From a plasmid, in the sequence record NZ_MK262712.1: a stretch of DNA of 64,000 nucleotides, one strand, 5' to 3'. Shown piece after piece: positions 3,001 to 9,000 of this stretch. The number at the start of each line of letters is the position of its first letter. Within the stretch, counting starts at the first letter, position 1. The position numbers are program-made.

Positions 3001-6000
3001 TTAGGTTACAGATTACACAACAATCTGGAAAACCTATCTGATTTTGTGTATGTGGCTGTCTCTTTTGAATTATCACTTTTGCGTTCTGGTATAGAGGTAA
3101 CCCCTCCCCCCTCTTTTCCCGCTGGTCTACTGTAGTCGACACAAAAGACAGGAACCTCGGTATGTCCTGATAATATTGTTTGAGTTTTAATCACGAAGCA
3201 GAGGGCATCGCATACAGTAGACACAACGCAGCCAGAATAACGCTCGATGCAAAATGTAGATCGTTGTCGCCTGCAGTAGACATTCCCGGTATCGACACTG
3301 GTGCATCCAATACTGACCCGTTCCCGGATCATGGCAGAGCATCCAGTAGACACGGTATGGAAGGATGTCAGTCCTCACCTTTCCGTCTGTTTTGACTGTG
3401 TCGGAGACGACGGTTGCGGTTATTGATGATGCCTTTGGCCGTCAGGGGAATACCTGTCTGTCAGGTAACTCTGTCGTTACATTTGATGCCCGAAAATCAT
3501 AATTACCACATATTAATCCGGGCATTCCGGAAAATTGTGCCTGCCTGAAGAGTATCAAACGATGCCTGTCTCCCCTCCTCTGAACTATCTGCTCAGTCGC
3601 GAACCTTAACGATAGGGTGATTCAGTTTCGGCAAATGGCAGCATGGTAATGTCAGCCAACAGCGTGCTGGTGAATTTATTGTCGGGCCAGACGAATTCAG
3701 TTTGTCACTGCATACTGCATGCCGGGTAGAGGAGTGAACAACGATCGAACTGAAACAGTTGCAGCGTCGTATGGAGAAAGAATGGGTTGGTTACAGGTGG
3801 TGCTTCGGCCTGTTTCAAACAGTGTCTGACCGGCTTCTGGTAAGTTTTCTCCCTTGCTGTCTGGTGATTCTGTCTTGCCCGGATTGTTGACTATTGATGA
3901 TGATGTTTATCCACAGCTTAGAATAATAACAGAAGCTTAACTAAAGCTAAGTAAAGGACAAAAAGGACTAATAAAAGAATAACGTTTTAGTGAGGCCTTG
4001 AACTACGGGCCTCTCAGGCCATCTCTGTCAACGCTGGCGGGTATTCTATCATTGCTGGCGGGTGAACCATCATCGCCAGAGGGTATACCATCAACGCTAA
4101 CGGGGCAATTATCATCGCCAGAGGGTAGATTTTATCAACGCCAGCGGGTAATCTGGTAAAAATATCCACATCCGGGATTTTATAAAATGGCCAATGATAA
4201 CAATCAGTTAGCGCTAATCATCACTGAGCAAGATAAAAGTTCTGGTGAAGTTATACATTTGGTTCCTAACTCAAAACAGAGTATTCAACCCAAATCGCTA
4301 CTGCGATTGGGGGTCTTTGTTCCGACAGTCAAGGATGGCAGTGACCCTATGGCACGAGGTCATGTCATCGATGCAACGACTGAGTTGTGTCGTCTTTCTT
4401 CTATCGCTGGAGAGGGGTACGAAAAGATTAGTATTTTTGGGCCCAGGCTTGATATGGATACGGATTTCAAAGTCTGGCTAGGGATCGTGGACACACTCGC
4501 CAACACATTTCTTGAGCCTGATGGGACTGTTAGGGTCAATTTTATTGATTTTGCTTTCAGTTGTGGGCTTGCTACAAAACGAGTTGATTCAAGGTTAAGG
4601 AAACGTTTTAGCGACTCACTGACACGGATCCAGCACACCCATTTCCAGTTCATCAAAAACTCAACAGTAGAAGGGAAAAAAGTAAAGATCGACATGAGCC
4701 TGGTGTCTACTTCTTACTATGATGAGGGAACCGATGAGGTCATTATCAGGCCAAATCCGGATTTGAATACTCTGTATCGTGTCGACGGGAAGACCCGACT
4801 TTACTTAAAAATATTGAAGACCCTGTCTCGAAAAGAATCAGCCCAGGCACTGTATCTTTATCTAGTTGAATTACCTGACCATTTTTATCGCATTGGATTC
4901 GACCGCTTAAGAGAACGGTTGCAGCTGACTTCACACAAAGGTGCTCAGAATGCGACGATAAAAAAAGCGTTAGAGCAACTGGATGAAGCTGGTTTTTTAA
5001 AATACACGATAGAAAAAAATCGTGGGGATTATGTACTGGTCATTCTTAGTCGAAACAAAAAAGTTACCTGAGTTATTTAGGTAAAATCAGTCATTTACAT
5101 TACACACTGACTCCAGAGTGTAATTTTAAGAGTTCGGGTTTTTAGCTAACGCAGCAAACCGAACCAGGTAATTACCCTCCAGGGATGAGGCTTTACACCA
5201 GCAGCGCCCTGTTTACCCGCCAGCGTTGAAGATGACCACCAGCAGCGACCACGCTTACCCGTCAGCGTTGAGGATGGTCACTGGTATCGCCCCTGTTTAC
5301 CCGCCTGCGTTGAGGATGAGCACCGGCAGCGGCCCCGCTTACCCGCCAGCGTTGAGGATGAGCACCGGCAGCGGCCCACTTTCCCCACCAGCGTTGAGGA
5401 TAGCCACCGTCAGCGGCCCCATTTACCCGCCTGCGTTGAGGTTGAGCACCGGCAGCGGCCACGCTTACCCGCCAGCGTTGAGGATGACTACCGGCAGCGG
5501 TCCCGTTTACCCGCCAGCGTTGAGGATGAGCACCGGCAGCGGATCCGCTTACCCGCCAGCGTTGAGGATGAGCACCGGCAGCGGCCCCGCTTACCCGCCA
5601 GCGTTGAGGATGAGCACCGGCAGCGGCCCACTTTCCCCGCCAGCGTTGAGGATAGCCACCGTCAGCGGCCCCGTTTACCCGCCAGCGTTGAGGATGAGCA
5701 CCGGCAGCGGCCCCGCTTACCCGCCAGCGTTGAGGATGAGCACCTGCAGCAGCCCCGTTTGCCCGCCAGCGTTGAGGATAGCCACCGTCAGCGGCCCCGT
5801 TTACCCGCCAGCGTTGAGGATGAGCACCGGCAGCGGCCCCGCTTACCCGCCAGCGTTGAGGATAAGCACCGCGGCGGTCCCGTTTATCCGTCAGCGGTCA
5901 CGTTTGCCCGCCAGCGTTGAGGATGAGCACCTGCAGCGGCCCCGCTTACCCGCCAGCGTTGAGGATGAGCACCTGCAGCGGCCCCGCTTACCCGCCAGCG

Positions 6001-9000
6001 TTGAGGATGAGCACCGGCAGCAGCCCCGCTTACCCGCCAGCGTTGAGGATAAGCACCGTCAGCGCCCCCGTTTGCCCGCCAGCGTTGAGGATGAGCACCG
6101 GCAGCGGCCACGTTTACCCGCCAGCGTTGAGGATAGCCACCATCAGCGGCCACGCTTACCCGCCAGCGTTGAGGATAGCTACCATCAGCGGTCACGTTTA
6201 CCCGCCAGCGTTGAGGAGGAGCACCGGCAGCGGCCCTGTTTGCCCGCCAGCGTTGAGGATGAGCACCGGTAGCGGATCCGTTTACCCGCCAGCGTTGAGA
6301 ATGATTCCCCTCTACCGACCCCGTTAACACGCCAGCTTTGACACTACCAGCGACTACAGTCGACATTAAAATCGCCGTGACCTGCTGCAGCGTGATATAC
6401 GCCCGGCTGGCATCAAAAGAATCTTAACCAAACAGCACACATCCAGCGGTACAGGAGGCCAGGTTTAACCCGGGGCAGAAACAGATTGATCTATAGCGAC
6501 TTGTTAGGATCATTTAGCAAAAACCAATCCCGAAAGGCCTGCTTGCTATCGAAGGTGGGAAGGTTATGTATGGACAAGTTCCAGTTAATGATTTTCACTA
6601 TAAAAGGGGAGCCCGCAGAATTCGGAAAAAATCGTACGCTAAGGTTTTCCGGGCATCCGTAAGGGCCGAAACTTCCCGTCTTCCAGTCTGCGGCTCTGCC
6701 GCCAGACGTAATCGCCGGTTAGGTTGATGTGCTCCCAGCCCAGCGGCGACAGGAATTGCAGCAGCTCGCCGTCCACCGGCTTGCCGGCCTCGACCAACCC
6801 CTGGGTGGCGCGTTCCAGGTACACCGTGTTCCACAGCACGATAGCCGCCGTCACCAGGTTGAGGCCGCTGGCCCGGTAGCGCTGCTGCTCGAAGCTCCGA
6901 TCCCTGATTTCCCCAAGGCGGTTGAAGAACACCGCCCTGGCCAGCGAGTTGCGCGCCTCACCTTTGTTCAGGCCGGCATGCACGCGGCGGCGCAGTTCAA
7001 CACTTTGCAGCCAGTCCAGGATGAACAGCGTGCGCTCGATCCGGCCCAGCTCGCGCAGGGCCACGGCCAGTCCGTTCTGGCGCGGGTAGCTGCCGAGCTT
7101 GCGCAGCATCAGCGAGGCGGTGACGGTGCCCTGCTTGATCGAGCTGGCCAGGCGCAGGATGTCGTCCCAGTGGGCACGCACGTGCTTGATGTTCAGGGTG
7201 CCGCCGATCAGCGGGCGCAACGTCGGGTAGGCTTGCACGCCCTGCGGCACGTACAGCTTGGTTTCGCCGAGGTCGCGGATGCGCGGCGCGAAGCGGAAGC
7301 CTAGCAGGTGCATCAGGGCAAAGACGTGATCGGTGAAGCCGGCCGTGTCGGTGTAGTGCTCCTCGATCCGCAGGTCGGACTCGTGGTACAGCAGGCCGTC
7401 GAGCACATAGGTGGAATCGCGGACGCCGACATTCACCACGCGGGTGCTGAACGGCGCGTACTGGTCGGAGATATGGGTATAGAACAGCCGTCCCGGCTCG
7501 CTACCGTACTTCGGGTTGACGTGCCCGGTGCTCTCGCCCCGGCCACCCGCGCGGAAGCGCTGGCCATCGGAGGATGAGGTCGTGCCGTCGCCCCAGTGGG
7601 CGGCAAAGGCGTGGCGATACTGGTGGTTGACCAGCTCGGCCAAGGCCGCCGAATAGGTTTCGTCGCGGATGTGCCAGGCTTGCAGCCAGGACAGCTTGGC
7701 GTAGGTCAGGCCGGGGCTCGACTCGGCCATCTTGGTCAGCCCGAGGTTGATCGCATCACCGAGGATTGCGGACAGCAGCAACGTCCTGTCTTTGGCCTCG
7801 GCCCCGTCCTTCAAGTGGGTGAAGTGGCGGCTGAAGCCCGTCCAGTCGTCCACGTCCATCAGCAGTTCGGTGATCTTGATGCGCGGCAGTAACTGGCTGG
7901 TTTGGTCGATCAGCGCCTGCGCCCGATCCGGCACCGCCGCATCCAGCGGGGTGATTTTCAGCCCTGACTCGGTGAGGATGGCATCGGGCAGCTCGTTGTC
8001 CTTGGCCAGGCGGGTGACGGTGGCCAACTGCTCGTCCAGCAGCTGCAAACGCTCTTCCAGGTACTGGTCGCTGTTCGGGTTGATCGCCAGGGGCAGGGCC
8101 TGCTCGCGCTTGAGTGCGGCGAACTTCTCGGCCGGCAGCAGGTAGTCGTCGAAGTCGCGGAACTGCCGCGAGCCCTTGACCCAGATGTCGCCGGAGCGCA
8201 GGGCGTTCTTCAGCTCGGACAGGGCGCAGATTTCGTAGAATTTCCGGTCGAGGCCTTCCGGGGTGATCACCAGCGGCTTCCAGCGCGGCTTGATGAAGGC
8301 CGTGGGTGCATCGGCCGGCACCTTGCGCAGGTTGTCGGCGTTCATCTCACGCAGGGTCTGCACGGCTGCCAGCACGCCTTGCGCGGCCGGCGCGGCGCGC
8401 AGTTCCAGCACCTCCAGCAAGGCCGGCGTGTAACGGCGCAGGGTGGCGAAGTTCTCGCCGACCAGGTGCAGGTGGTCGAAGCCTTCCGGCCGGGCCAGCA
8501 GCTCGGCCTCGCTGACGCTCTCGGTGAACTCGTCCCAGGGAATCACCGCCTCGATGGCGGCATAGGGGTCGCTGCCGCTTTCCTTCGCTTCCAGCAGCGC
8601 CTGGCCGATCCTGGAGTACAGGCGCACCTTGTCGTTGATCGCCTTGCCCTGCTTCTGGAACTGCTGCTGATGCTTGTGCTTCGCGCCGCTGAACAGCTTG
8701 ACCAGGATGCGGTCATGCAGATCGACCAGCTCATCGATCACGGTCGCGGTGCTCTCCAGCACCACGGCGGCCAGGGTCGCGTAGCGGCGCTGCGGCTCGA
8801 ACTTACCGAGGTCTTTGGGCGTCATCTGCCCACCCTCGCGGGCCAGCTTGAGCAGGCGGTTCTGGTGGATGTGCCGGCCCAGGCCTTCGGGCAAGTCCAC
8901 CAACTGAAATGTCTTCAGCCGCTCGATGTGTTCCAGCATGTGCCGAGAGTTGGGTTTCAGCGGTGCCTGGCGCAGCCAGGTCAACCAGGTGATGCTGCTG

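Follow-up and report, generated by a model that had tools for sequence, protein, structure and literature searches.

Here we describe a long tandem array of iteron-like repeats downstream of the replication initiator gene repA in a 64,000-nucleotide stretch of plasmid DNA (sequence record NZ_MK262712.1, one strand read 5' to 3'; hereafter the window). The initiator gene (4187-5071, plus strand) encodes a 294-aa Rep_3-family protein (WP_004186900.1), named 'RepB family plasmid replication initiator protein' in RefSeq, and the replicon is typed IncHI1B (pNDM-MAR/pLVPK type). RepA matches PF01051 (Rep3_N; E=5.4e-11, 43.5 bits, cut-off 22.4) and, weakly, Rep3_C (16.9 bits, under its cut-off). By tblastn it is 60% identical to R27-like RepHI1B and 43% to the RepA of pMT1, and the RepFIB protein reaches merely about 41%, so that the replicon called RepFIB-like in the initial annotation, which was made from the sequence alone, is more properly IncHI1B/RepHI1B-like.

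Upstream of repA, six conventional iterons are present as annotated, with 17-nt cores at 4028-4151 that read yTACCCkCyrGCGwTGA on the minus strand; the cores end at 4044, 4065, 4086, 4107, 4128 and 4151, giving spacings of 21, 21, 21, 21 and 23 bp. A composition profile places an A+T-rich stretch (31% GC), the putative DNA-unwinding region of the origin, at 3900-3999, and a perfect DnaA box (TTATCCACA) lies inside it at 3907-3915. A second DnaA-box-like site (ATATCCACA, one mismatch; 4162-4170, plus strand) is found between the iterons and the repA start. DnaA-box-like matches occur at chance frequency in the window, and it is position alone that makes the 3907-3915 box suggestive. Because a Rep_3 initiator is combined with direct iterons of about 21 bp, located upstream of rep beside an A+T-rich stretch and a DnaA box, the replicon can be assigned by its sequence to the iteron-controlled Rep_3 theta replicons (the P1 RepA / RepFIB / RepHI1B group).

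The array begins 101 bp past the repA stop and has a GC content of 59-71%. Enumeration anchored on a conserved motif identified 26 strong-core tandem units of 41-43 bp, 24 of them exactly 42 bp, spanning 5213-6324, together with a 20-bp partial unit and two degenerate end units. Tandem Repeats Finder (TRF), which the initial annotation had named as a check, recovered a period of 42 over 5196-6304 in two rows that overlap (16.7 and 9.9 copies; 85-88% matches), and the array of about 26 iteron-like 42-bp units described there is thus borne out by both approaches. All elements are on the plus strand. The proximal degenerate unit (5172-5212, 41 bp; core TTACCCTCCAGGGATGA, 18.5 bits on the origin-iteron matrix described below) corresponds to the conserved first unit of arrays in the virulence plasmids we sampled. 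It is followed by a first block of 16 tandem units (5213-5883, starts from 5213 to 5843), fifteen of 42 bp and then one of 41 bp, and by the partial unit with its weak core (5884-5903, 10.9 bits); the 41-bp unit and the partial unit jointly shift the register by 61 bp. The second block contains ten tandem units (5904-6324, starts from 5904 to 6282), nine of 42 bp and then one of 43 bp, and the distal degenerate unit (6325-6366; core TAACACGCCAGCTTTGA, 12.9 bits) represents the conserved last unit of such arrays.

The initial annotation had also described a six-unit higher-order periodicity and attributed it to amplification of a six-unit block. Locally this is what we see: units 5339 and 5381 reappear at 5591 and 5633 with 0 and 2 mismatches, respectively, and identical units occupy every third position at 5549, 5675 and 5801. 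Units six apart share a mean of 36.55 of 42 positions, versus 34.5-36.2 at other lags, and permutation of unit order supports lag 6 (p=0.0014, family-wise 0.018), with lags 3 and 9 nominally enriched as well. These recurrences are traces of a few block (segmental) duplications. A regular six-unit superstructure across the whole array is rejected, as only local 3- and 6-unit recurrences were found; amplification of a six-unit block stands as a local event.

Array sites match the origin iterons

Each unit divides into two halves of different character. The first 21 nt (A half) are an iteron half (TTACCCGCCAGCGTTGAGGAT) that is almost invariant within the window array, and the second 21 nt (B half) are a variable spacer (GAGCACCGGCAGCGGCCCCGY). 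The window contains 31 occurrences of the 17-mer TTACCCGCCAGCGTTGA with up to three mismatches, where 0.21 would be expected, and all of them fall in the origin or the array. A position weight matrix made from the six origin iterons alone, scored against a background of 123,146 positions, gives 17.7-22.8 bits for the A half of every unit, compared with a background maximum of 14.5 bits and a 99.99th percentile of 9.8. The iteron core that the initial annotation placed in each 42-bp unit is therefore recovered with a matrix that contains no array sequence. In total, the array holds about 27 full-strength sites (the 26 units and 5172) and two weaker ones (5884 and 6325), in a single orientation and on the strand opposite to the six origin iterons; the array thus has the reverse orientation to the origin set. 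At four helical turns, or double the origin spacing, the 42-bp period would place all the sites on one face of the DNA.

We considered the spacer half as a second, degenerate iteron. TRF detects a weak sub-period of 20-22 bp, and some likeness appears in gapped alignment. Scored with the origin-iteron matrix, however, every spacer half stays within the 99.9th percentile, and we rejected the spacer as a present-day iteron; a degenerate iteron is a possible evolutionary origin of this half.

The array lacks the other elements expected of an origin. The composition profile revealed no A+T-rich stretch in it, and a box scan found DnaA-box-like matches there at chance level only. Two such sequences with one mismatch (TTATCCTCA), at 5857-5865 and 6044-6052 on the minus strand, derive from two GAGGATAAG-variant units and are probably meaningless, since matches of this kind number at chance level window-wide. 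No sigma-70-like promoter or intrinsic terminator was predicted from repA to the end of the array.

Auxiliary control iterons are well known from related replicons. In P1, the incA locus comprises nine iterons downstream of repA, and in F, incC comprises five iterons downstream of repE; both are negative copy-control and incompatibility loci that act by handcuffing. The array resembles them in that its sites lie beyond rep, match the origin iterons and are inverted, as those of incA and incC are partly or wholly, and in that its RepA belongs to the same Rep_3 family. It differs in having three to five times more sites, a strict 42-bp tandem register, one orientation and high length polymorphism. 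By sequence, the array sites appear to have the specificity of the origin iterons, as auxiliary iterons of the incA / incC type do, and the array lies outside the origin, beyond rep and without origin elements of its own.

Downstream iterons and array length among relatives

A parallel array exists in IncHI5-type plasmids (for example pKpNDM1 and p19051-IMP), whose RepA is 86.7% identical to that of the window. Their array has 19 units, 18 of them exactly 42 bp and one of 34 bp. It shares with the window array the core TTACCCGCCAGCG.TGA and the same division into a conserved and a variable half, whereas the spacer half is unrelated (CCCGTGGGCGTTACAGGCCCCGT) and the 34-bp unit has no counterpart. 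The unit 'repHI5B together with its iterons' has been counted as part of the IncHI5 backbone (PMC6339943).

More distant relatives carry downstream iterons in a different arrangement. The RepHI1B replicon of IncHI1 R27 and the replicon of Yersinia pestis pMT1 resemble that of the window in their homologous RepA, in upstream iterons spaced at 21 bp and in further iterons downstream, mostly inverted. In R27-like RepHI1B, 10 sites, most of them inverted, follow shortly after repA and match its own, different origin iterons; pMT1 has 11 downstream sites matching its own origin iterons, five of them at a spacing of 40-41 bp. The iteron sequences (CCACTATACCGGGTA and CCACTATAGAGAGTA) differ from those of the window, the downstream sites are irregularly spaced (35-121 bp) rather than homogenised into a tandem array, and TRF found no tandem array in either relative. 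Since these sites follow their own origin iterons, downstream auxiliary iterons are a family trait that tracks initiator specificity, and the IncHI1B/IncHI5 branch has expanded them into a phased array.

The replicon itself is widespread. When PLSDB was searched with the 2.45-kb repA-array segment, 941 plasmids matched, 882 of them from Klebsiella, with 66 at 99% identity or more. At least 40 are 100% identical over the full length; these come from chicken, swine, housefly and human isolates and from several species. The plasmids on which the IncHI1B replicon resides are conjugative (MOBH/MPF_F) and have IncFIB and rep_cluster_1254 replicons in addition. Two scans of a one-genome-per-species collection, one for cores spaced at 42 bp and one for the 21-mer, returned no matches.

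Array length is highly polymorphic. The initial annotation had proposed comparing it among relatives, and in 18 plasmids sampled across the hit list we counted 4, 10, 13, 13, 14, 15, 16, 22, 22, 22, 25, 26, 27, 27, 28, 29, 30 and 30 sites per array, the window array being the one with 28. The sampled conjugative relatives range from 15 to 29 sites, which makes the window array typical, not exceptional, within the family. Its size had been described as far beyond that of typical downstream iteron groups; this holds in comparison with P1- and F-type control loci and fails for this replicon, where such lengths are ordinary. When distinct units are coded as letters, the end units prove to be fixed and the arrays differ by in-register gain or loss of blocks. 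One example is an 8-unit duplication (HAACFQDOA-UNACF... to HAACFQDOA-AACFQDOA-UNACF...), and another is a deletion between repeated ACF blocks that leaves HAACF-BPREBMGI.

Variation within the units is unevenly distributed. Among 315 internal units (72 distinct) from the 18 plasmids, the distinct units contain 28 non-consensus bases in the 17-nt core versus 244 in the other 25 positions, and positions 12-17 are invariant (Fisher test on alleles, p=1.8e-4). Since whole units are homogenised together, a core that is far less variable than the rest indicates constraint on it.

In seven of the loci, all from pLVPK-type virulence plasmids (L007, L016, L017, L022, L023, L025 and L026 in our numbering), repA has lost 300 bp in frame (nt 570-869, between short GGTCATT direct repeats), and with them the C-terminal winged-helix (WH2) part of the protein. 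The first 10 loci hinted that arrays were shorter where repA is deleted; with 18 loci this idea was dropped, as the deleted-repA arrays range from 4 to 30 units.

Proposed role in copy control and alternative explanations

Based on these observations, we suggest that the array is probably an expanded auxiliary locus of RepA sites, similar to P1 incA, that restrains replication by handcuffing and titration. It would represent an expanded and homogenised form of the control iterons found downstream of rep in P1-, RepFIB- and RepHI1B-type replicons. By analogy with P1 incA and F incC, RepA molecules on the array could pair with those at the origin: within one plasmid (in cis), about 1 kb of DNA would loop out between them, and between sister plasmids (in trans) the pairing would amount to handcuffing. 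The array may additionally sequester RepA. Pairing and sequestration together would limit initiation, hold copy number low and cause incompatibility, and the length of the array would change through in-register unequal recombination or slippage. We infer RepA binding, negative control and handcuffing from the sequence and from these analogies. Such a copy-control and incompatibility role, already proposed in the initial annotation, fits all of the sequence evidence, including the match to the origin iterons seen in the origin-matrix scores, the selective conservation of the core, the architecture found across the family and in IncHI5, and the observed length polymorphism.

The proposal also agrees with published descriptions. 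Iterons downstream of rep are reviewed as modulating copy number by titration and handcuffing (PMC12361487). In pLVPK-type plasmids, an 'iteron-1 region' of 413 bp with ten 34-nt repeats has been read as a set of non-origin iterons lowering copy number (PMC9602619). Ten repeats in 413 bp imply a 42-bp period, and the locus L016 in our sample indeed has 10 sites within 419 bp. The 'iteron-1 region' of pLVPK/pK2044 resembles the window locus in its repA, in its 93-97% nucleotide identity across the region and in its position, and the TRF consensus unit of pLVPK (14.8 copies) is nearly identical to the 42-bp consensus of the window. The two differ in that the window comes from an IncHI1B/IncFIB multidrug-resistance plasmid that is conjugative, has an intact repA and carries 26-28 sites, versus about 10 per 'region', and the earlier work counts 34-nt repeats without dissecting core from spacer. 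It further reported a 378-bp (nine-unit) duplication of iteron-1 that arose within a patient, and plasmid copy numbers of 3.0, 2.43 and 1.33 with 0, 1 and 2 iteron-1 copies, in three strains only (PMC9602619).

Several points weigh against a copy-control role exerted through RepA. The published copy numbers come from plasmids with a truncated repA, and for one condition, co-culture with HCT116, the values 2.03 and 2.25 are swapped between CSKP204002 and CSKP204079 in the main text relative to Table S2 (PMC9602619), so that the claim of 'more flexible control' made there rests on ambiguous numbers. With three strains, a truncated repA and this disagreement between text and table, the correlation with copy number is weakened. 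The deleted-repA virulence plasmids of our own sample retain arrays of 4-30 units, and array length in them cannot act via an intact RepA. Some pLVPK variants have lost the entire repA-iteron region (PMC10748404), presumably relying on their other replicon. The window plasmid, too, is multi-replicon (IncFIB, IncHI1B and rep_cluster_1254), and its IncHI1B replicon may therefore not drive replication. Finally, the exact array is unchanged in at least 40 plasmids from different hosts, which argues that it is not a fast-switching locus.

These same points leave some weight with the notion of a neutral satellite, in which two ancestral control iterons multiplied through slippage or unequal crossing-over into an array that now has no selected function and drifts in length. 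The spread from 4 to 30 units in 18 relatives, deleted-repA plasmids included, the simple in-register nature of the gains and losses, and the dispensability of the region in some pLVPK variants (PMC10748404) are what drift would produce. We nevertheless regard a neutral origin of the whole pattern as unlikely: variability in the core is about a tenth of that in the spacer although drift and homogenisation act on whole units, the separate IncHI5 lineage keeps the core and the 42-bp period with a diverged spacer, and at least 40 plasmids belonging to one epidemic lineage have the array unchanged.

A further, equally doubtful possibility is that the array goes beyond a passive sink of the incA kind and is a length-tunable 'rheostat', in which in-register gain or loss within the 4-30 unit range sets copy number, and which might act independently of RepA or with WH1 only. 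Such modes are conceivable since long arrays persist, and reportedly still track copy number, where RepA lacks its C-terminal winged-helix domain. Cross-talk with the co-resident replicon might be involved, or else a structural effect exerted by a protein-DNA filament that is one-sided and phased at four turns.

Other RepA-dependent roles appear improbable. A replication-fork barrier, or a tethering and segregation element like the EBNA1 repeats of Epstein-Barr virus (EBV) oriP, is brought to mind by the layout, with initiator sites packed densely on one side and a smaller cluster at the origin about 1 kb away, which is reminiscent of FR/DS in oriP. No Rep_3 plasmid relative that we examined supports such a role, and the simpler incA-type role already accounts for position, orientation and family distribution.

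A partition centromere, bound by a partition adaptor instead of RepA, would be a slightly poorer explanation still. The sopC centromere of F consists of twelve 43-bp repeats adjoining sopAB, each unit with an inverted repeat bound by SopB, and the array is likewise a long tandem repeat of near-identical period, carried by a large enterobacterial plasmid of low copy number; the direct-repeat parC of R1 offers a second model. Unlike sopC, the array has neither an inverted repeat nor adjacent par genes, and its repeated core is the origin iteron of its own replicon. Its native neighbours are repA, a sub-threshold CoiA_N hypothetical, Hha and a tyrosine recombinase. In a dimer of the consensus unit we found no inverted repeat of at least 5 nt, a test that leaves direct-repeat parC-type centromeres unaffected. 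With both the adjacent par operon and the dyad symmetry lacking, a sopC/parS-type centromere was rejected.

Least credible of all is a genuine gene for a 14-residue tandem-repeat protein (e.g., YPPALRMSTGSGPV or LPASVEDEHRQRPR), which was rejected because there is no single conserved strand and frame with start signals and no robust coding pattern of substitutions. The three long open reading frames (ORFs) of the initial annotation are present, at 5226-6272 (plus), 5917-6327 (plus) and 5884-6366 (minus), with translations periodic at 14 aa; RefSeq annotates 'hypothetical proteins' there, and within the variable part, synonymous variants are nominally enriched in frame +1 (p=0.024 by Fisher's test, with no correction for the four frames). 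Against a protein, four of the six frames of the consensus unit are open, near chance (about 0.72 per frame by our own calculation), as follows from a 67%-GC unit with a length that is a multiple of three. The annotated strand, frame and length vary among plasmids, with lengths tracking array length; units of 41, 20, 43 and 34 bp switch the frame, as the 41-bp and partial units do in the window; and some units contain in-frame stops. The repeat ORFs have no Pfam match, no promoter-like site was predicted within the array, no Shine-Dalgarno motif could be read ahead of the TTG at 5226, and the 3-nt periodicity of unit variation is not significant (p=0.14). Their earlier description as probable artefacts is thus upheld.

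Surrounding sequence and significance

Past the array, 240 bp of native flank remain (6367-6606). They contain the 3' remnant of a conserved neighbour gene (about 6491-6606, minus strand), into which the inverted repeat of a Tn3-family transposon cuts at 6606/6607. This transposon, 240 bp beyond the array, begins with its terminal inverted repeat (GGGGAGCCCGCAGAATTCGG...) at about 6607 and encodes a Tn3-family transposase at 6639-9605 on the minus strand (NF033527). The truncated neighbour is a CoiA_N-like hypothetical, followed elsewhere by Hha/YmoA and a tyrosine recombinase; the remainder of this native flank is missing from the window. Over the replicon, the window is 100% identical to pSCKLB555-1 (NZ_CP043933.1, L018 in our sample), and position-by-position comparison of the two fails across much of the first 49.7 kb. 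This mismatch and the native flank missing past 6606 indicate that the resistance island is arranged differently and that the plasmids are related but different.

On the other side of the origin, a motif of about 21 nt, GCAT.CAGTAGACAC, is present in three direct copies at 3204, 3263 and 3333 (spacing 59 and 70 bp), with an inverted partner at 3125-3141. The whole cluster (3125-3353) lies 700-900 bp upstream of the origin iterons, partly within an annotated hypothetical ORF, and could be another protein-binding cluster. A 9-mer of the motif is not enriched window-wide (10 matches versus 7.9 expected).

Further along, a three-gene RND efflux cluster on the minus strand (35313-41064) encodes an adaptor of the MexC family (610 bits, slightly under the equivalog cut-off of 625), an RND permease and an outer-membrane channel of the NodT type. 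The cluster is similar to tmexCD-toprJ, a mobile determinant of tigecycline resistance, and is situated within a large resistance region that also contains msr(E)/mph(E) (47181-49596).

The array as such is already known: its exact sequence is present in dozens of public plasmids, its pLVPK sibling has been named and interpreted in published work, and auxiliary control iterons are textbook knowledge. What we add is the dissection of core and spacer, the inverted orientation and four-turn phasing, the 4-30 range of lengths with its block-wise evolution, the parallel array of IncHI5, and the survival of long arrays beside a deleted repA.

The replicon occurs on two clinically important groups of Klebsiella plasmids, the hypervirulence plasmids of the pLVPK/pK2044 type and large conjugative multidrug-resistance plasmids. 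The dissection of core and spacer and the unit maps should be useful in designing a direct functional test of the array. Should copy number and incompatibility indeed be set by the length of the array, this would influence how virulence and resistance genes are dosed and also bear on whether resistance and virulence plasmids of the IncHI1B type can coexist or must fuse.

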